A DNA stretch of 64,000 nucleotides. Origin: a virus (lineage: Duplodnaviria; Caudoviricetes). The translations under genes and the position numbers were made by a program. Position 1 is the stretch's first letter. Every line of letters begins with the position of its first letter. A model generated the notes under the pieces. That model ran no database searches and had not been told where the DNA came from. It saw only the letters and a program-made list of their open reading frames with translations. The stretch covers positions 1-64,000 of the IMG/VR virus record IMGVR_UViG_3300042258_000071; one strand, 5' to 3'. Below, in pieces: positions 4,898 to 59,818 of the stretch.

Positions 4898-6157
4898 ATG
4901 ACAGAGATCCAGATTAAAACCAGTGATGTCACAGAGTTTCTAAAACACTGTGTTGACCTCACAATGCACGTCTATACGGTGGATGATGACGGGTATGTCA
5001 TGCTCACATCTGATGACAAGAAAGTTGAACTAGGTTCTGATAAGAAAAACATTGTTCTATATCAAGAGAAGATTGAGGATAACAATGCCTATGTCCTAAA
5101 TCCCTTCTCTGAAGGATTGTCTGACAGTCCTCCAGACCGATGGTTTTATACGACGATGCGGATGAGTCTTGTCCACAGGATTGGGTCAGTTCTTCAAATG
5201 CTCGTGCATATTGCAAATGAAGATCGTAAGTTTTCTGAGTCTACTCAGAAACAAAAGACCCGTCCTCCAAAACATCCTTCAGTCATTAGCCGTATCGCTA
5301 GTAAAATTGTTAAGAATGTTGATGACAAACTCGTTGATGAGACAGACAAATTCGTTTTAAATGCAGATGATGTTCTTAACGTCATTTATAGTAAGCGCCT
5401 CATGGCGCATCGTATTCGAATTCCACTTCTTGAAAATGATGTTGACTTCCCGAAATCAGTTCGTAAACAATCTCAAGAAACTTGGCTTACCATTCTAAAA
5501 CTTTTGTTTGAGATCGACACCACTGAAGATCTTGATAAATATACTGTTAAAGCAAGGGAGGATGCGACTCCTAAGATTGATAGTTTCATGGGGTGCATTT
5601 ATCTGGTTTATAAGCAGTTCAATGAAATCTTCGATGTCTTGAGTGTTGAACAACGCATGTCGGTTGATCTGACAGAATTCAAACATCACATCGATCGCAT
5701 GAGTGCTTATAGTAAAAATGCGAAAGGTATGATTTCTTATGTTGCCACAGCACCAAAAGTGAATACCAACACGCATCCGGCGTCTTCAGTGCCAGTACCG
5801 TCAATGGGACATCTTTCAACAGTCCCATCTGGAGAAGGAGGTACTATCCCTGGAACCACAGTACCGATCCCTCGAGGAGCCGAGGGAGCTTTCTCCCAAC
5901 CTCCCTACAATCCCAATGGATACATGGGGCCACAGCTCCCTGTTCATCATACACCAGGTGGTGTACCTTATGGGGCGTCGATGCATCAGATGAGCCCTCG
6001 GTCACGCGGGTTTGACCCAATCTCAACACCTACGTACAATGTATCAGGACCAGGATTTGAGACTTCACCCTCAAATGGTTCTATGGGGGGGCAGGTTCGT
6101 CTCAATATCGGATCGGTCTCAAATGGGACTCCCGGGATGCCACACCTTCGACGGTAA
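4898..6157 (+). CDS. phiKZ gp70-like conserved protein with a Pro/Gly-rich disordered C-terminus
   Basis: 419 aa; LNPFSEG..SP motif; synteny; low-complexity P/G/S tail. Confidence 0.5.
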   Translation: MTEIQIKTSDVTEFLKHCVDLTMHVYTVDDDGYVMLTSDDKKVELGSDKKNIVLYQEKIEDNNAYVLNPFSEGLSDSPPDRWFYTTMRMSLVHRIGSVLQMLVHIANEDRKFSESTQKQKTRPPKHPSVISRIASKIVKNVDDKLVDETDKFVLNADDVLNVIYSKRLMAHRIRIPLLENDVDFPKSVRKQSQETWLTILKLLFEIDTTEDLDKYTVKAREDATPKIDSFMGCIYLVYKQFNEIFDVLSVEQRMSVDLTEFKHHIDRMSAYSKNAKGMISYVATAPKVNTNTHPASSVPVPSMGHLSTVPSGEGGTIPGTTVPIPRGAEGAFSQPPYNPNGYMGPQLPVHHTPGGVPYGASMHQMSPRSRGFDPISTPTYNVSGPGFETSPSNGSMGGQVRLNIGSVSNGTPGMPHLRR

Positions 6158-6168
6158 CAATATTACAT

Positions 6169-6209
6169 ATAGAGAGATAGGGCACACCCTATCTCTCTAT
6201 CTTTTTTTT
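6169..6209 (+). terminator. intrinsic terminator
   Basis: atagagagataggg-caca-ccctatctctctat followed by a T-run. Confidence 0.85.
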
Positions 6210-6250
6210 GTTAGTTTAGCATCGTCTTAGATGATATACCAAATAGAAGT

Positions 6251-7300
6251 ATGATAAGGTATATCCACATGATCGTATCTCATCACCCCTTAAGACCGAT
6301 ATCTTTCACGCCGGCTTTAAAAGAAGTGATATTATTTAATTCTAACTTTGATCACAGTTCTAATGTATCAGTGGAATTTACTGGTTATAAACTTATTACA
6401 AAAGATTTCTCACAAACACTTCGAGAGACTGTATATATCGAACGATTCGGGTTTATACAAGGTCATCTTTTTTACCCGTTTAAACATAGATATCGGACTG
6501 AAGACACTATTATTACCTCAGTGTTATTTCGATCTGGACTTTCTAAATTGTTTGGAAGTATGGCGACTTCCTCTTTAATTTCATTCTATCAAGTGCATTA
6601 TCCATTTGATCAAGACGATAAAGGAATTTCTGAAAAGATTCTTTTTTCAGAATGTCTACAGTGTACACACCTTGGTATCTATCCAGACATTTTAAAGACT
6701 TCTCATGTAGAACTCTTGGAGACCACTAAAGATCTCTCTCCAAAACAATTAGGAACTTTCTTTAAGGATACCTATTGGGCGTCAGACATTCCTGTTGCAG
6801 ACATTCTTTCTTTACCTGCTATGAAAAACCTTTCTTATGAAATTAACCTTAAAAATGTTCGTAATATGGTACATCTTGACCCTCTTATATCGTTGAAAAC
6901 AACCCATAGGGATACCTACCCGTCTGTTGAAAATGTTGACATATTAGAAGATGACTATAGATTTTTTATTGAAACGATAAACATGTCTGAATATGAATCT
7001 TTTGACTTCACTGTAAGGTGGTCAAAAGAGGATGGGTATCATCATTTTAAAATAGACCATTTTTTAAATCCTTATAACTGTGTTGTAACAAAAGATCCTC
7101 AGATTGCAAACATCCTTATGCAAACATTTCCAATTAAAACATATACCTATCTAACAGATGCTTTAGAAGTGCGGGTTATAAGAACCAGGTGGGATGATGT
7201 CTATATTTATATAACAGGACTGCCATTTCAGGATGATATAGATAGTTATCACATCAACCTCACAGGTATATCACTCCACAGCTACGGCTATAGGGTTTAA
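6251..7300 (+). CDS. hypothetical protein (349 aa)
   Basis: Long ORF, no recognised motif. Confidence 0.65.
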   Translation: MIRYIHMIVSHHPLRPISFTPALKEVILFNSNFDHSSNVSVEFTGYKLITKDFSQTLRETVYIERFGFIQGHLFYPFKHRYRTEDTIITSVLFRSGLSKLFGSMATSSLISFYQVHYPFDQDDKGISEKILFSECLQCTHLGIYPDILKTSHVELLETTKDLSPKQLGTFFKDTYWASDIPVADILSLPAMKNLSYEINLKNVRNMVHLDPLISLKTTHRDTYPSVENVDILEDDYRFFIETINMSEYESFDFTVRWSKEDGYHHFKIDHFLNPYNCVVTKDPQIANILMQTFPIKTYTYLTDALEVRVIRTRWDDVYIYITGLPFQDDIDSYHINLTGISLHSYGYRV

Positions 7301-7326
7301 TTTTTTAAGAGAAGAGAGTTGTCATC

Positions 7327-9688: not shown

Positions 9689-10921
9689 GTGAGTAAAAAA
9701 CTCCCTAGCAAAAACCGCCACCCCAGGAAGAAGGATCCTAAGTATCCATACATGGACAATCTTCGTATGGACCCACGACTTCTTTCATCACCACATTGTC
9801 TTGTACCTTTTTCTGAAAAAGTATCCTCTTCTCGGTTAGACATGTTTCGTTCTCAGACAGGTCAGACACTTATCATAGATGGTGCAGAGTTCCCTCAGAT
9901 CTTTACAGGGTTTGAATGGGACACTGGACATTATGAGATGTCTGGAACAACCCGCCATCAAGACATGCATATCCTTGAAGTTATCCCAAAATATATGATC
10001 CGTGCGATCGATGGGAAGATGACTAAAAATCCTACCCGTACAGTAATCTGTCGAGGGATTAAAGACAAGAAACTTCACTACTTTAATCTCAACAGTTACT
10101 ACATGGGGAGCGACGGATTTGGGTATGAAACTCAATTCAAAAATGAACATCTCCTTTTAAAAGATTCCCTTCTTGAGAAAGATGTCACTCTTGCACATTC
10201 TAAAGCTCGTCAAGGTGAGAAGTATTGCATGGGGACAAATCTTAATACAGCATACATTACCATCCCAGAAACGATTGAAGATGCCCTCATTATTTCAGAG
10301 TCAGCAGCAGATAAACTCACTTCAACAGCAATCAATGAAATTACCATCAATATCAAACCAAACGAACACCCTATCAATCTCTATGGAGATCATGAGACGT
10401 ATAAATTTCTTCCTGATATTGGGGAGAAAGTTGGTGAAGATGGTATCCTATTTGCATTGAGATATGTCGATAATAACAGTTTTGCTTCAGATATGCAGCC
10501 TTCTGAAATGAAGACGATTCAAGCAATGCATGACTACCCCATCCGAACCCCTCCAGGTGCAGAGATTCTTGATATTGATTTCTTCCCATGCCCCCGAAGC
10601 AAAGACAGAATTCCGTGGTCTATCTTTGCTCAAGCAGAACCCTATCTTGAAGCCTCTCGTCAATACTGGGAACGGATCATTGCGATCTATGAACAGTATG
10701 GTTCTAAATATGGTCTAAGTTCTTCGTTTAACACTCTTGTTACAGACGCATATATGTACGCATCAGCATATGGCGCACGTATTCGCGACATACCTCATCG
10801 TAAAATTCAGTTCGTAGATCGTAAAGAAGAGACTGTTGAGTTTCTTCAGATCAGAATCGTCTATAAATATAAACGTCGTCCAGGAGAACCTGGGTTTAAA
10901 TTGGCAGATCGTTTTGGTACT
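9689..10921 (+). CDS. non-virion RNAP beta-like subunit (phiKZ gp71/73-like), exon 1
   Basis: SSSRLDMF..Q, GTNLNTAY..ETIEDALIISES and FLPDIGEKV..DGIL motifs; ends GFKLADRFGT, the first half of the GDKxxxRHGNKG motif; 411 codons. Confidence 0.9.
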
Positions 10922-11364
10922 TTTCAATATCTAACTATACGTGGACTTAATATTAAGAGTTATTGCGAACACGCTAAAGTTAGATAAGATAGGTCGCTTA
11001 GATAGAAATATTTAAGTGAGCGCTCCTTAATTGACGGGGACCTCCTAAAGCCAAATCCACCAACCATATCTAGTGATAGAGTATGGGGCCAACTGTAATG
11101 GGTTGGGTAAGGTAAAAGAGATTTGGATACATGGACGATCCGCAGCGAAGCACCTCACACCTGTCGGGATGACAGCGATGAGATGAACGTTCAACGACTA
11201 AGGGATTCACCACCCTGTAGGGCCAAGGGGCTCGAAATAGGAGCAACCTTATCATCTCCCCTTTACGAGATGAAGGTTAAGATATAGTCTCGGCATCTGG
11301 GGAAATCCCAGAGCAGCACGTTATTGTGCGGGTAGAGAACTACCGAACTCTACTGAAGACACCG
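10922..11364 (+). ncRNA. group I intron (443 nt, no homing endonuclease ORF) in nvRNAP beta
   Basis: Core elements P TTGACGGGGA, Q GATCCGCAGC, R GTTCAACGACTA, S AAGATATAGTC; 5' exon ends in U (ACU pairs with GGU guide); terminal G at 11364; removal restores in-frame DRFGT|KGIECQVVPDEHMP. Confidence 0.92.
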
Positions 11365-12471
11365 AAAGGTATCGAATGTCAAGTTGTGCCCGATGAACAT
11401 ATGCCTGTCGATGAACAAGGCTTTCGAGCTGACGTTGTTGTCCATCCAGGGTCCGTTGTTGCCCGTATGAACCCAGGTCAGTTATATGAACAATTTATCA
11501 ACAGATGTTCAGAATTTGTACGTCGTAAACTTGAAAAGGTATATCCTACAAATCCTGATCTTGCTTTTGATCTTCTTATGGATTATTTTGGGGATATCAA
11601 TCCTAACTATCGTGACCTTGTGTTATCTGTTCGAAACACTCAAGAAGAACGTCATCTTCTTATTAGAGAATGTATCGAGGATAAAATCTATATAAACTGC
11701 CCACCTTCTCTAGATACAATGTATGACGACTACACCTATGAACGCGTCATGGCGAGACATCTTAAGGAGAACCCTGAACGTGCAACGGAGATGCTTGCAG
11801 AGAAAGGGTATGAACCTAACGACATTTTAGATGAATCACAATACACTGAAAATCTCATCTTAAAACTAAGTCAGAAATGGGGGTATGCTGAATCTCCTGT
11901 AACCTACACGATCCATGATGAACAAGGTATCCCTAAGACCTTTAAAACTATGAAGAATGTGTGCATCGGACCTCGGTACACATATATTCTATACAAAATT
12001 CCCTCTCCATCCTCCCCAGGTGTTGCGTATGTCTCACATTACGGTATCCCGATGAAGGGACCTTCTAGTGCTAAGATGGCTACAATGGCAGCACCAACCG
12101 CTATTCGAGAAGGGGAGGATGAGCTTCGCATCCTCTTACATGACATTCCTTCTGAAGACATGCTTAGATTTACAGGTCTTCAATCGGCTTCTCTTACAGC
12201 TGTTAATAAAGTTATCGAAGAACTCTTAGTCTCTGAACACCCAATGAACATCGATCGGTTTAACATTTCAACTGAAGAGATTCGCAATACACATGCTCCC
12301 ATCAACCTATTACGTCACATGATGGCAACAATCGGTGTTGACATTGTAGATACCTGTGCCACCGATGCCGATGTTCCTGACTTTATGAGGGGAGATTATT
12401 CTGAGGAAGATGATATCGATGCTGAAGATGAGATTAAAATAAGGGATGTTCTAGATGAAAAGAATCAGTAG
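11365..12471 (+). CDS. non-virion RNAP beta-like subunit, exon 2 (spliced product ~779 aa)
   Basis: KGI..VVPDEHMPVD..G.RADVVVHPGSVVARMNPGQLYE, IGPRY..LYK and REGEDE beta motifs. Confidence 0.9.
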   Translation, partial: KGIECQVVPDEHMPVDEQGFRADVVVHPGSVVARMNPGQLYEQFINRCSEFVRRKLEKVYPTNPDLAFDLLMDYFGDINPNYRDLVLSVRNTQEERHLLIRECIEDKIYINCPPSLDTMYDDYTYERVMARHLKENPERATEMLAEKGYEPNDILDESQYTENLILKLSQKWGYAESPVTYTIHDEQGIPKTFKTMKNVCIGPRYTYILYKIPSPSSPGVAYVSHYGIPMKGPSSAKMATMAAPTAIREGEDELRILLHDIPSEDMLRFTGLQSASLTAVNKVIEELLVSEHPMNIDRFNISTEEIRNTHAPINLLRHMMATIGVDIVDTCATDADVPDFMRGDYSEEDDIDAEDEIKIRDVLDEKNQ

Positions 12472-50294: not shown

Positions 50295-51740
50295 TTAAGT
50301 ATCAAAATACATGGAGACGACTTCATCCTCAAGAGTGTGCATAACGCGTTCACCAACTCCCATCACAAATGGAGAGTAGATGATACGGTCATTCACAGCA
50401 GTCGCTCCAAAGAACATATCAATATCATCCCCACTCTCTGTCTTGGCCTGACTTGGCATGATAGCCCCGATAACAGTCTTAGCTTGTGCACCAATAACAA
50501 GTTTATCCCCAGGGCCACATTGAAGATCTTCATCGATCATGATCGTGATCATGACTGTATCTTCTTCAAAGTCTACACCCTGATACTTAGTCCCTACAGG
50601 GATACGGTGTGGGGGAAGGTATTGACGTTCTTTAGACGTTCCACGTACCTCTTTACTTTTCTTTAAGAGTTGAGATGATGTTTTCTTAACAAGCTCTTGA
50701 ATAGAAGGGTGTAAGTCTTCAAAGGGACATGCATGATAGACACGGATAGCTGCGATCGTTCCATGATACTTAGCAGTTGGCATGGAGCGGTTAAGGGATG
50801 CTAGGAATTCCATGGTCTCGGGATCATCGATACTGTCCATAGAATTCAAATCTCCCTCCTCCATGATCATCAAATAATCTGTTGTTTCAACAACATCCCC
50901 AACCTTCACGATGTTAGTAAGCAGGGTATTATTTGTAATTGAAATAGTACGAAGATGTGCAGGTGACATGTGAAGACGTTTAGAAAAGTTAGAAGATATT
51001 TCACAAGAATCTTCAATTGTTTCAGATTTCTCAATAAGAGCAATTTTTGCTGTAAGACCATGTTTCCAGTTCACCTGTTTAGAATCAGGATCTTTCTCAA
51101 AGAACCCACTGTTGTAAACGAGGATATCACCCTTCTTAAACTTCTCACCCTCTTTAACATTGAGGACATTGGTCTGTTTAAGATAGGTTCCAGAAACACT
51201 TGTAAAGGATTCCCCAAAGGAGAAGATTTCAAATTGTTCAGATTCTTTATGTTTCTTAGGTGACAGTCTAATGTAAACAACAGGGCCTTCTTTGAGTTCT
51301 CGAAACTCTTTCTGTGTTAACATTGATGTGTCAGGGACATCTTCAAGTGATTTAAAGGGAAGTTTCTCAACAACTTCAAAAGGTGAAGTGTCATTTACAT
51401 TGACAACATTTCCCTGTTTAATCTTAGAAGCATCTTTGTCAGAACGAATCATGTAGATGAAGGTGTTGTTATCATAAGCTTTTTTTATATCGTCTTTCTT
51501 GATATTTAAAGATACTTCTTTAGAAGTTTTAATTTGTTCAAGATCATATTCTAATTTAAGAAGACCTAGCTTCTCATTAATACCAATAACTTTCCCATTA
51601 CGCTTAGCAGCGCATGCAAAATTCTCAGATGGGTAATGTGCAATAACTTGCTCCATACCCGTTCTGATTCGAAGAGTTTCACCTTCTTGAGATGGTACAT
51701 GATGAGAGAGCTGGATAGAACAAAATGACAGGCGTTTCCC
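50295..51740 (-). CDS. virion RNAP beta-like subunit (phiKZ gp178-like), exon 2
   Basis: GKRLSFCSIQ..H, IRTGME, ETIEDSCEIS, GDKLVIGAQAKTV, DIDMFF..NDRI. Confidence 0.9.
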   Translation of the reverse strand, partial: GKRLSFCSIQLSHHVPSQEGETLRIRTGMEQVIAHYPSENFACAAKRNGKVIGINEKLGLLKLEYDLEQIKTSKEVSLNIKKDDIKKAYDNNTFIYMIRSDKDASKIKQGNVVNVNDTSPFEVVEKLPFKSLEDVPDTSMLTQKEFRELKEGPVVYIRLSPKKHKESEQFEIFSFGESFTSVSGTYLKQTNVLNVKEGEKFKKGDILVYNSGFFEKDPDSKQVNWKHGLTAKIALIEKSETIEDSCEISSNFSKRLHMSPAHLRTISITNNTLLTNIVKVGDVVETTDYLMIMEEGDLNSMDSIDDPETMEFLASLNRSMPTAKYHGTIAAIRVYHACPFEDLHPSIQELVKKTSSQLLKKSKEVRGTSKERQYLPPHRIPVGTKYQGVDFEEDTVMITIMIDEDLQCGPGDKLVIGAQAKTVIGAIMPSQAKTESGDDIDMFFGATAVNDRIIYSPFVMGVGERVMHTLEDEVVSMYFDT

Positions 51741-52095
51741 CGTACTATTCCATAAAGGTTCGGTATCTCCTTCATGCGCAGCATAACCTGCAGCTATGGC
51801 TTTCACCATAGACTAGATCATATCTTTACCTTGAGTCATATGACTGTTAGGTAACTCCCATTTCGAGACCCCTTGGTCCTACAGGCTGACAAAGCCTTGA
51901 TCGTTGAACGTTCATCTTAAGGATGTCTCACGACAGTCTTAAGACACTTCGCTGCTGGTTGCCCAATCTTCACATTTTTCAAACTATCACGCTTGTCGTT
52001 ACCAACTACGTTGTAGTATGTAAAGCTCTAAGGGGGTTCTAGCAATTAGAGAGCATTCACTTAAAACTTTTCAGTTAAAAGCGGACAAATAGTTT
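51741..52095 (-). ncRNA. group I intron (355 nt, no ORF) in vRNAP beta
   Basis: P1 GAU|AAA-cua-UUUGUC; R GUUCAACGAUCA and S AAGAUAUGAUC; terminal G; removal gives in-frame TQDD|GKRLSFCSIQ. Confidence 0.92.
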
Positions 52096-55403: not shown

Positions 55404-55967
55404 ATGAACGTTTGGAATTGGATTAAATCTTTCACTAAACAAAATGAGGGGGTCCCAAAATTTATCGCTAATCCTCATAACCAAAAAGTTCCTGAGCAAG
55501 AAATTTTTCAGGAACTTGAGGCCGTAACTTCTCAGTTCCCACTAATACTCAAAGCCGATGGTGATGTTTCAAAACGTTCACCGATATATCTCACTCTTCA
55601 ACAGGCGAATTTTACTGAAGATGATCTTGGAAATCCTGTATCTTCCAGTGTGATCTTGGAAAAGATGGGGAGGGTCCCTATTTTAAATATATTTGATCAA
55701 ACAGATATAATCATTTCCAAAAATTACCTCAAGATTGGAAAGTTGGCAAATGATTCATTGCTTATTCGAGTCAATTGCCGAATCAAACTTGAGGGTTCTA
55801 ATGAAGACATGTCTGATCACCTTACGATGGTGGTCCCTCCCTCCCGTAAAGAGGACGTGCACGATGTTCTCATTACATATGCCGGTAAGCATCTGGAAGG
55901 TGGAATCTCCGACATCAAATGGGAAAAACGCGTTCTTAACGTTCTTAAAGCATTACCCACAACTTGA
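55404..55967 (+). CDS. hypothetical early protein (187 aa)
   Basis: AAGGAG SD; followed by hairpin ~55971-56004. Confidence 0.75.
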   Translation: MNVWNWIKSFTKQNEGVPKFIANPHNQKVPEQEIFQELEAVTSQFPLILKADGDVSKRSPIYLTLQQANFTEDDLGNPVSSSVILEKMGRVPILNIFDQTDIIISKNYLKIGKLANDSLLIRVNCRIKLEGSNEDMSDHLTMVVPPSRKEDVHDVLITYAGKHLEGGISDIKWEKRVLNVLKALPTT

Positions 55968-56000
55968 AACATACAAGCATGGTGGGATTTCCCACCATGC

Positions 56001-56300
56001 TTGTATTTATGCATTTGCAGCACCAATGACGTATGGAGAACTATGGGTTTAATGTCATATAAGGAGAGTGACTCAACAGACTCTGATAGTTATGACCTTA
56101 ACTTGAGGATATCTGAGCTTATATTGTTTTACAAATTTTTAATGAAATATCCAACACTAAACCCTTCCATTGATCAGTATATCCATGATTGTGAAAGGAT
56201 CGACTCTTTGAAATTTATCATCCCATCTGAACTCTATAATCATGCGACAGCCATATTAAATAACGTGGCGCAGGAACATGGGTTCTTCTTCGAAAGGTAA
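56001..56300 (+). CDS. hypothetical protein (true start probably ~56043)
   Basis: GGAG upstream of ATG 56043. Confidence 0.55.
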   Translation: MYLCICSTNDVWRTMGLMSYKESDSTDSDSYDLNLRISELILFYKFLMKYPTLNPSIDQYIHDCERIDSLKFIIPSELYNHATAILNNVAQEHGFFFER

Positions 56301-56306
56301 TCTCTT

Positions 56307-57224
56307 ATGTCAGCATTTTCAACCATGTCTAAAGTAGCAGCTGGTGCAACCGCATTCACCGGGGTCTATTATGGCTTCAAAGTCGGAAGTTATATTTTTA
56401 AAGAAAATACGTTCCGGAGTATGTCAAATGAAATATACTGGGAGAATCTTAAGAAAATATTAACAATAATATTTTCCGCATCATCTCGCACGGGGGTGAC
56501 TCTTCCCGATGGATTATGGGTTGAAACCATCAAACTTGCGTGGATAAGGAGTCTTGGAGATGGATTTGCGCCTAAAACCAACCCGTCAGTGCAAGAACAG
56601 CGGGTAATTGCGGTTACGCTCGTCGAGGAAATCTTCGAGAAAATCATCGAGAAAATTGAGCTTAAGAGTGCATATGAGAAAATCAGTTATGCCCATAAGG
56701 GTCTCTCTAACACATCGTGCCCAGCACCCCATGGGTGGCAGGGTTTCATCGATGAGTTCTTTACCGAGAAGGGTTATGAGATTCCTGTAAATGAGCAAGG
56801 CCCTTATTGGGGGCAGCTTGAGTTCATTTATGAGATCCTTGTAGCTGCAACACCGCGTTCGCAGGTCGTGCTAAACGATGGTGCTTGGGAGGGGATCTTG
56901 GGTATGGTTCTTGAAAATATGACACCTGAAGATCAGGAACTTCATGCCGATCCAAGGAGTCATCGATTGCTCCACATTGCTCTTATTGAGCATGTCTACG
57001 AACGCTTGATCAAAAATGTCGGTCTCAATGTTGCGTATAACCGAATTTGCTATGCGCATAAAAATCTTAATGACAAGTCTTGTCCGGCACATTGCGGCTG
57101 GGATAAGTTTATCGAAACCTTCTTTGAAGAGAAAGGTTTGAAATTCGAATCTGACGACGACATATCACCCCCATCAAACAAAGGTCTTCATGAGACCGTA
57201 TCACGAGGAGGTTCCTCATCATGA
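56307..57224 (+). CDS. protein with an N-terminal hydrophobic segment and two tandem ~120-aa homologous domains
   Basis: YW..L...R..V.L.DG.W ... AY..I.YAHK.L...SCPA..GW..FI..FF.EKG occurs twice. Confidence 0.8.
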   Translation: MSAFSTMSKVAAGATAFTGVYYGFKVGSYIFKENTFRSMSNEIYWENLKKILTIIFSASSRTGVTLPDGLWVETIKLAWIRSLGDGFAPKTNPSVQEQRVIAVTLVEEIFEKIIEKIELKSAYEKISYAHKGLSNTSCPAPHGWQGFIDEFFTEKGYEIPVNEQGPYWGQLEFIYEILVAATPRSQVVLNDGAWEGILGMVLENMTPEDQELHADPRSHRLLHIALIEHVYERLIKNVGLNVAYNRICYAHKNLNDKSCPAHCGWDKFIETFFEEKGLKFESDDDISPPSNKGLHETVSRGGSSS

Positions 57225-57672: not shown

Positions 57673-57707
57673 ATAGATAAGAGAGGGGGTGCCCCCTCTC
57701 TTATCTC
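57673..57707. terminator. bidirectional terminator
   Basis: agataagagaggggg-tg-ccccctctcttatct between convergent genes. Confidence 0.85.
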
Positions 57708-57709
57708 TA

Positions 57710-57898
57710 TTATACATTTTTAAGAGGATTTTGATAGGTCATCTGAATCATCATAAGGTCTATCATATCACTAAACGTTCCCTTTAAGAACTTACCTTCA
57801 GGAGTTAGAAATGATCTTGGACTTTCCATGTATTCAGACAGTTCACGTGTAGTGTCTTCACCCCAAATGTAATTCACAGATGAAGTATCCCCATCATA
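57710..57898 (-). CDS. virion RNAP beta'-like catalytic subunit (phiKZ gp180-like), exon 2 (absent from the ORF track)
   Basis: Reads YDGDTSSVNYIWGEDTTRELSEYMESPRSFLTPEGKFLKGTFSDMIDLMMIQMTYQNPLKNV*, completing DYDGD. Confidence 0.9.
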   Translation of the reverse strand, partial: YDGDTSSVNYIWGEDTTRELSEYMESPRSFLTPEGKFLKGTFSDMIDLMMIQMTYQNPLKNV

Positions 57899-58261
57899 CC
57901 TTTATATTCCATAAAGGATCGGTCGCCCCTTATGCGCAGCATAACCTGCAGCTATGACTTTCATCATAGAGTAGACTATATCTTCACTATAGGTTGTGTG
58001 GTGTAACCCTTAAGTGTCTCCTATTTCGGGTCCCTTGACCCTACTCCCCGCTACGGGATAGTCGTTGAACGTTCACCATACTACTGTCGTCACGACATGT
58101 ATAAGGCGCTTCGCTGCTGATCATCCATTGTAACATTTGATACCTTTTTGAACTATCACGCTCACCTTTTCAGGTCACGTTGTAGTGTATCAACTTTAGG
58201 ACTTTCCAGCAATTAAGGAGATATCATCTTAGCTATTTCTAACTAAGTGGACTATCAATTA
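57899..58261 (-). ncRNA. group I intron (363 nt, no ORF) splitting the catalytic DxDGD motif
   Basis: P1 GAU|UA-auuga-UAGUC; P UUGCUGGAA, Q GAUCAGCAGC, R GUUCAACGACUA, S AAGAUAUAGUC; terminal G at 57899; spliced LGAD|YDGD. Confidence 0.93.
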
Positions 58262-59818
58262 ATCAGCTCCAAGCCCCCCAAGGGCACTTGTATGAACAAT
58301 CGTACTATCTAAAAATCCGTCATTAGCATCTAAAGATGGATAATGTGGATACTCAGCATCGTCCTCACCTGTAATGAGGTCATACAGTTTAACGGTGCGA
58401 GAGTTGGATGTTGAGTTAAGGTGTATTTTAGCAGGATAACATGATCCATCTTCAATAGCAGGGTACCGCGTCACCATAGCGTATTTATTAAATGTGGCGA
58501 TATACGTTGCAAGATATACGATCTCAGCCCATGTGATGGGGCGGAGTTTTGTACGATCAACTTTTTTACCTAAATTCTTCTCAAGATCGCCAAGACTCCT
58601 AACGATGGAAATTCGATCACCTTGATCATATACCAAGCAAAGGTAGAAAGGTTTCTTATCACGATTATAAATAGTGACAGCTGACCGTCGAACATCTTCA
58701 TTTGAGAACCGAGTTAACCACTTGTTAATACCTGTCCTTGTAACGAATTTATCTTTTTCTAATTGAGAGATTTCTGTATATACAAGATTTAAAGTTTTAG
58801 GATCAGTGAGAGGAACATTAACCTCATCACTCTCTCCTAAGATGGGGGTGAAAAACGCTGTCTTAAGATGGTGGATAACGAAGGGCTCCATCCCTTTGCA
58901 GGATTGATAAAGTCCTACCATAACTTCATCAGGTTTAAGAGACCGTGGATCATCAGGAGAATCCATCACATAACTTGCAGCACTTAGAACATTACGAGTT
59001 CCAAATGCCACTGAACGTGATCCATACCCACCATTTTGCATGAATCCTCGTTTACCAGTTTGGAAGTTCTCAAGGTAATCATAAACTTCAATAGCTTTCT
59101 CTTGAAGTTTATATCGAACTTGATTATAAATAGGGTTAACTGTTTTTTCTGGAATAGATAAACTTAAAGATATCATACTCCGATAGAGCTTGTTTATTTC
59201 ATCTTGCACCATGCGCGCACCAGACTCGATTCGAATATCTCGAAATCCTGCAGGAAGAACGATGTACTTATTAATAAGAGAAACCTCTCGATACTGATTT
59301 AAGAGGGTGACTCGGTTTTCACGTTTGAGGGATTCTGTTAAAGGAAATTCAATTTCATGATAGTGCGATAAGAAGAACGCATAACCTGTTCCGGCATCTT
59401 CAACATCCTCTGGATCCCCAACAACACGTTCAAAATTTTTTATCTCAGAGTTAAATGTTGCATAAACACGCCCTGCTAAAATGTCGTCATACAGAGAACT
59501 TATTTTGATGAGATTTTTATAAATAATAGGAGCGATGATGTTACTGCTTAGAGGGAGGAACCCAAATTTCTTCATGCGATCATCTGAACCCACTGCCCCA
59601 AAGATTTCTTCTGAGAAGAGACCGTCTTTATGAAAGAGCGTTGTTGATGGTTCTAAGACATCAAATGACGTTACCGCTGCAATAATATTTTTCTGAACAA
59701 AGTCATCTACATCCATAACGCGGATGTTAAAAGGTCCATAACCGGAATTTTTCATATTCGATAAATCTTCAAGCCCTTTAGACCGATTCACAATATCGAA
59801 TGGAATTTGCTGTACCAT
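58262..59818 (-). CDS. virion RNAP beta'-like catalytic subunit, exon 1 (spliced product 581 aa)
   Basis: FHKDGLFSEEIFG, VLPAGFRD, GKRGFMQ..GSRSVAFGTRNV and TRYP motifs; ends LGGLGAD. Confidence 0.92.

Follow-up and report, generated by a model that had tools for sequence, protein, structure and literature searches.

Our analysis indicates that in this phage a group I intron without an endonuclease gene splits the gene coding for the beta' N-terminal half of the virion RNA polymerase, and that self-splicing of the intron would restore a 581-aa product with a complete catalytic loop. Splicing is what we infer from the arrangement of the locus, and we put the probability of this reading at about 0.9. 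The window, that is, the whole stretch of DNA analysed (64,000 nucleotides), covers the opening 64 kb of an IMG/VR record that is complete at 236,443 bp and has direct terminal repeats. A megablast search of the locus against the phage collection gave no match, so the phage has no close cultured relative there.

The interrupted gene lies on the minus strand. The called ORF (58259-59818) closes with GGA GCT GAT TAA, or ...LGAD*, and its stop codon is the first triplet of the intron, as the first-pass annotation had proposed. Exon 1 (58262..59818, minus strand), defined by the ORF list and PHROG 2986, encodes 519 aa with the C-terminus ...ALGGLGAD and is the source of the first Asp of the DxDGD motif. 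Exon 2 (57713..57898, minus strand, with the stop codon at 57710-57712), defined by its translation and PHROG 2986, encodes 62 aa starting YDGDTSSVNYIWGEDTTR and provides the second and third catalytic Asp together with the C-terminus (YDGDTSS...). The sole ORF with a start codon in the exon 2 stretch begins with GTG at 57877, on the 3' side of the DGD codons. The proposal that two of the three catalytic Asp are placed in an ATG-less exon of 62 aa at 57898-57710 was thus borne out by the translation.

The family profile PHROG 2986 ('RNA polymerase beta subunit') matched both parts of the gene. Exon 1 covered profile positions 6-484 of 539 (E 5.5e-131) and exon 2 covered positions 485-538 of 539 (E 1.5e-6), and the two pieces abut at 484|485 with neither gap nor overlap. 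When the exons were joined computationally from the window, a product of 581 aa was obtained which reads ...LGADYDGDTSS... and reproduces the junction peptide proposed at first. It is colinear with the uninterrupted homologues, GADYDGDTSS being aligned with GGDFDGDALS in SXP01 and with TADFDGDTVS in PhiPA3 gp212. Taken together, these matches go well past anything expected by chance. The complete DxDGD is present solely in the spliced form (GADYDGD), while the unspliced ORF contains the first Asp alone.

No significant Pfam match was found when the two exons and the adjacent beta ORF were searched as single sequences. In the tblastn search, 313 jumbo-phage records, including Goslar, PhiPA3, OBP, N1M2, and SXP01, matched at 30-34% identity, and several of the matches, the best phage ones among them, are annotated as virion-associated RNA polymerase beta' subunit. 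A profile built from 19 homologues (alignment A1) was then compared with the PDB. It matched the AR9 beta' N-terminal subunit (7S00_d) with an E value of 3e-20, and its positions 476-534 aligned with E. coli beta' residues 446-505, which we take to be the stretch with NADFDGD. Because the profile aligns with AR9 beta' and with this E. coli stretch, the interrupted motif corresponds to the catalytic Mg site. The PhiPA3 homologue carries an annotation of similarity to phiKZ gp180, and by homology the gene studied here is assigned as the counterpart of phiKZ gp180, which forms the N-terminal half of that phage's virion polymerase beta'. From this orthology we infer that the enzyme would be packaged in the virion.

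A GC-rich palindromic hairpin (57681..57702, minus strand) was found by the terminator scan a few bases past the exon 2 stop. The scan reported a 9-pair stem (5 G-C) on the plus strand and 5-pair forms (57682-57696) on both strands, and the hairpin is likely a two-way transcription terminator closing the beta' gene. On the other side of it, two plus-strand ORFs of 187 and 305 aa (55404-57224) were observed between the virion polymerase genes, which are adjacent to each other in phiKZ, PhiPA3, and SXP01. Neither ORF had a PHROG match. The 305-aa protein shows an apparent internal duplication, with a repeated ...AYxxIxYAHKxLxxxSCPAxxGW... segment.

The intervening sequence, here called i1 (57899..58261, minus strand), is 363 nt long, starts with TAA, and has G as its last base. 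It is situated between the GAT codon of the first Asp and the TAT codon of the x residue of DxDGD. Rfam identified RF00028 at 57952-58270 on the minus strand, scoring 88.3 bits where the cut-off is 50 (E 3.3e-21), and the match extended over model positions 1-253 of 253, which is the whole core from P1 to P9. The claim that an intron bisects the motif therefore stands, and by family membership the 363 nt between the exons form a group I intron, for which guanosine-dependent splicing is predicted.

Both splice sites could be placed on the predicted fold. The P1 hairpin (58250..58264, minus strand) contains the 5' splice site. In it, the last three exon bases, GAU (58264-58262), and the first two of the intron, UA, form a helix with intron UAGUC (58254-58250); a U.G wobble thereby falls on the cleavage site, 58262|58261, and GUC (58252-58250) is the guide. 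The same hairpin is also present in the minimum-free-energy fold. The 3' end reads ...AUAAAGG|UAUGAUGGGGAU at 57899|57898, with the terminal (omega) G right before exon 2. Alternative U...G boundaries yielded no family-matching frame, and a one-base shift gave D-C-M-M. The weak points of the fold are P1, which is composed of three exon pairs and two intron pairs, and P10, which has about three pairs.

The fold of i1 had a z-score of -3.2. RNAalifold on 10 related introns, five from this genome and five from the same site in other phages, reported compensatory changes in 49 of 65 pairs, a count obtained from related sequences and with the structure predicted on the same alignment. As modelled, these changes argue for selection on the ribozyme fold.

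According to the mechanism we propose, transcription would run through exon 2 to the hairpin behind it. The folded intron, with its guanosine cofactor, would cut after the U of GAU, at the U.G pair in P1; the exons would then be ligated, and the intron would depart with its terminal G. The ligated exon junction would read GGAGCTGAT-TATGATGGGGAT. Translation of the unspliced RNA would halt at the TAA and give the 519-aa product, in which a single catalytic Asp out of three is present.

Since stop codons occur in all six frames of its 363 nt, i1 is without an endonuclease gene. A homing intron carries its own endonuclease; i1 has none, and present-day mobility is unsupported. It would most likely have originated as an endonuclease-losing derivative of the mobile HNH-bearing introns at the same site, such as those of phiKZ and of the metagenomic locus L059.

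It had been anticipated that standard annotation would report a truncated beta', and this is what the databases hold. The protein on record for this genome (P0002) is the 519-aa ...LGAD form, and its closest database relative (P0003), 77% identical, likewise ends ...LGAD. The RefSeq entry of phiKZ gp180 is truncated in the same way, with 490 aa ending ...LAPLGAD*.

The first-pass annotation had also raised the possibility of an intact second copy supplying the function from elsewhere. A second DYDGD does exist in the genome, at 231657-231671 on the plus strand, but it belongs to a divergent paralogous beta' gene, probably of a different enzyme, and would be no spare copy. This second DYDGD came from a motif scan; the search of the genome with exon 1 for a paralogue returned only exon 1 itself at E<=10. 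The second beta' gene is probably that of the non-virion polymerase.

Rfam found five group I introns in the whole genome, whose boundaries were set by frame and homology. Besides i1 (57899-58261, minus strand; GAD|YDGD), i2 (51741-52095, minus strand; 355 nt, Rfam 71.3 bits) interrupts the virion polymerase beta gene, a homologue of phiKZ gp178, at GGTQDD|GKR, and its exon 2 falls in the frame of the ORF 50295-51809. In another polymerase beta-like gene, i3 (10922-11364, plus strand; 443 nt, Rfam 70.7 bits) is located at DRFGT|KG, and the flanking ORFs 9689-10987 and 11326-12471 match adjoining stretches of the PHROG 3295 profile (RNA polymerase beta subunit). The topoisomerase TOPRIM metal-binding motif (L085) is interrupted at IMTDAD|SHGKHI by i4 (104658-105020, plus strand; 363 nt), whose 5' exon ends with GCAGAT, close to the GCTGAT of i1. 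The second beta'-like gene (L086) contains i5 (231171-231553, plus strand; 383 nt) at RNPSI|QKG, and this intron ends about 100 nt upstream of the intact NGDYDGDE motif.

All five introns are ORF-less, and they are 59-81% identical to one another in pairs. Four of them, i1, i2, i4, and i5, follow GAU and share the guide GUC. The remaining one, i3, follows ACU and has the guide GGU, a compensatory change matching its exon end. The identity of i1 to its genome-mates is 59-73%, against 48-61% to the same-site introns elsewhere (66.6% locally to that of phiKZ). Because i1 is closer to its genome-mates than to same-site introns of other phages, there is a hint that spread or homogenisation within the genome, and not separate homing events, may account for these endonuclease-free introns. 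RNA-guided reverse splicing into metal-binding motifs, at their GAU Asp codons, would be a fitting route, as would gene conversion between cores. We put this forward tentatively and regard it as somewhat doubtful at present. The sole HNH-domain ORF of the genome (97498-98727, plus strand; HNH_3, 409 aa) stands free about 6 kb upstream of i4 and is a possible free-standing homing endonuclease. No relation between this ORF and phiKZ gp179 was detectable, and the genome gave no Pfam match to GIY-YIG or classical HNH domains.

The maintenance of five paralogous ORF-less introns in catalytic motifs of functionally linked genes could also mean that splicing serves as a control point, with the introns holding back or releasing production of the two polymerases and of the topoisomerase as cellular conditions (GTP, Mg, translation) dictate. 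This idea would add to the self-splicing reading and would not replace it. Each of the five introns has a stop codon at or soon after its 5' splice site, and the discussion section of PMC10914365 describes spliced and unspliced phage intron RNA as coexisting, with an efficiency that depends on conditions. Regulation is, however, indistinguishable here from the mere persistence of selfish elements that can be lost through exact deletion alone, and in other phages the same sites hold introns which do bear endonucleases. We consider a regulatory role unlikely.

It is less probable still that i1 is a dead relic which does not splice, so that the beta' gene would be a pseudogene or would yield the 519-aa protein alone. 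In favour of this, i1 has no endonuclease, and a long-read transcriptome of phiKZ gave no evidence of the predicted introns being spliced under the conditions used (PMC10914365), a caveat for all inferences of this kind. However, every core helix of i1 is present, its covariance-model score is high, and the compensatory substitutions across the family imply selection on the fold. Exon 2 has stayed open over 62 codons with the family-specific residues retained, and the four other paralogous introns likewise interrupt conserved catalytic motifs, in genes for polymerases and a topoisomerase. The packaged polymerase is moreover thought to be necessary for early transcription in phiKZ-like phages (PMC10612078), which by extension would apply to the present phage.

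A truly split gene, with exon 2 translated separately as a small subunit and no RNA splicing, has a precedent of a kind in that the RNA polymerase subunits of this phage family are already divided into several polypeptides (PMC2919709), and a GTG-initiated ORF of 55 aa is available at 57710-57877. Yet this ORF begins after the YDGD codons, which would leave both Asp untranslated, and no start codon precedes YDGD; the 363-nt gap is a complete ribozyme, for which an unspliced spacer would have no need. Of the explanations that we weighed, this one is the least probable. Translational bypass of the T4 gene 60 type was rejected on the ground that what separates the exons is a complete 363-nt ribozyme.

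We then surveyed the site in 80 IMG/VR loci, which were retrieved with alignment A1 (19 homologues), whereas a single-protein query retrieved none. The 15 nt coding for DxDGD were intact in 56 loci, and in the other 24 (30%) the gene was interrupted within this stretch or just after it. The break lay between the first Asp and DGD in 18 of the 24; three were broken after DxDGD, and three had long in-frame insertions. Ten loci (L006, L009, L010, L031, L046, L052, L055, L056, L059, and L070) break at the same GAT| point as i1. The break is one base further in at L036, L043, L044, L074, and L078, where that junction alone restores DFD/DYD, and apparently also at L041, for which no exon 2 was found. 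At L035 it is two bases further in; L060 is broken after the second Asp codon, with no GD codons found beside its exon 2; and the junction of L039 is ambiguous. An HMM of intact C-termini recovered exon 2 downstream in 22 of the 24 interrupted loci. At the gathering threshold, Rfam recognised the element in 5 of the 16 interrupted loci tested.

The elements at this site are of more than one type. The intron ORF of L059 is a homologue of phiKZ gp179 (28% identity, E 7e-22). LAGLIDADG domains were identified in the long in-frame insertion of L028 (5369-7042) and in the second insertion of L010 (5864-7495), and the former also had an intein-splicing domain match below the Pfam cut-off. These two insertions are inteins. 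L010 apparently has an intron after the first Asp plus an intein after the motif. The short in-frame inserts of L007 (5462-6226) and L008 look intein-like, starting with CLIG and ending with VVVYD|T, with Asn where the third Asp is expected; they had no Pfam match. In L005, the nearest IMG/VR relative of the beta' gene (45% identity), the site used by i1 is uninterrupted and a 1.8-kb insertion (5461-7301) is found directly after DYDGD. This insertion was not recognised by Rfam at the gathering threshold.

Among 120 database homologues, many end inside the motif or right after it. A FastTree phylogeny of the exon 1 proteins required at least 12 changes between the intact and interrupted states, 7 of them forced by well-supported branches, and close sister pairs differ in the type of element, as for L007 (intein-like) and L009 (intron). 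Patchiness of this kind would be expected if elements were repeatedly gained and lost through homing. The 15 nt coding for DxDGD are a crowded homing hotspot, in which introns and inteins occupy several distinct nucleotide positions.

A truncated beta' without two of its catalytic Asp is now on record for the present phage, for phiKZ in RefSeq, and for a sizeable share of the sampled metagenomic homologues. Genes of such phages should be called with exons in mind before a working virion polymerase is declared missing. The present locus adds an endonuclease-free member to the intron family in the polymerase genes of phiKZ-like phages. The survey shows the DxDGD stretch to be a heavily contested landing site for selfish elements, and it thereby offers a natural series of alleles (occupied, empty, and differently occupied) for studies of homing and turnover. 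The first-pass annotation missed that phiKZ has the same junction occupied, which makes the case less novel than it seemed at first; what our analysis adds is the evidence for a crowded hotspot and the five-member intron family in one genome.

The T4 td, nrdB, and sunY introns and those of SPO1 and Twort are self-splicing, lie at conserved sites of essential genes, and often occur in one genome as several related copies. Some of these classical introns are ORF-less, and early stop codons are found inside them. Part of this background is given in the review text of PMC12908238. The classical introns are found in genes of nucleotide metabolism or DNA polymerase, whereas i1 is inserted in a multisubunit RNA polymerase, within the metal-binding loop itself. 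Conserved positions in active sites are known insertion points of introns and inteins (Swithers et al. 2009, PMC2814812), and inteins occur in eukaryotic RNA polymerase genes (PMC1635734). The DxDGD-coding stretch is in this respect a typical homing target, like the active-site insertion points of known introns and inteins. No published survey of the DxDGD site in jumbo-phage polymerases was found in a literature search of limited extent.

The PhiPA3 gp210 intron is a close parallel that has been examined in detail (Birkholz et al. 2024, PMC11620839). It lies in the virion polymerase beta gene gp211/209 and encodes a nicking HNH endonuclease whose action against phiKZ was demonstrated, the intron thus serving as a weapon between co-infecting phages. 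Like i1, it is a group I intron of a phiKZ-like phage and interrupts a virion RNA polymerase gene at an Asp motif of the catalytic site. Unlike i1, it is located in the beta subunit and not in beta', and it has an endonuclease. Its site is exactly that of i2, ...SMNDD| in PhiPA3 and ...QDD|GKR in the present genome.

The nearest comparison is with phiKZ itself. The portion of PMC11512511 dealing with its introns, citing Ceyssens 2014 and Mesyanzhinov 2002, places introns in gp55 and gp180 and lists gp56, gp72, and gp179 as endonucleases, and phiKZ Gp180 is reported to contain DFDGD (PMC10612078). In the phiKZ genome (NC_004629) the same gene is interrupted at the identical junction, GAT|TAATTG after the first Asp, so that the intron begins with a stop codon there too. 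Downstream, gp180 is followed by PHIKZ179 and by a group I core (Rfam 92.2 bits), beyond which, just before gp178, exon 2 lies as an unannotated frame of about 61 aa starting FDGDTVSFNAVYSEEAIAETD (FDGDTVSF), with an xDGDT start as here. The 3' part of the phiKZ intron, the ribozyme core, is 66.6% identical to i1 over 326 nt. The two introns differ in that the phiKZ one is 1443 nt long and has the 357-aa HNH endonuclease gp179 near its 5' end, whereas i1 is 363 nt long and ORF-less. The intron i1 is thus an additional, endonuclease-free member of the kind of intron already known at the same site in phiKZ.
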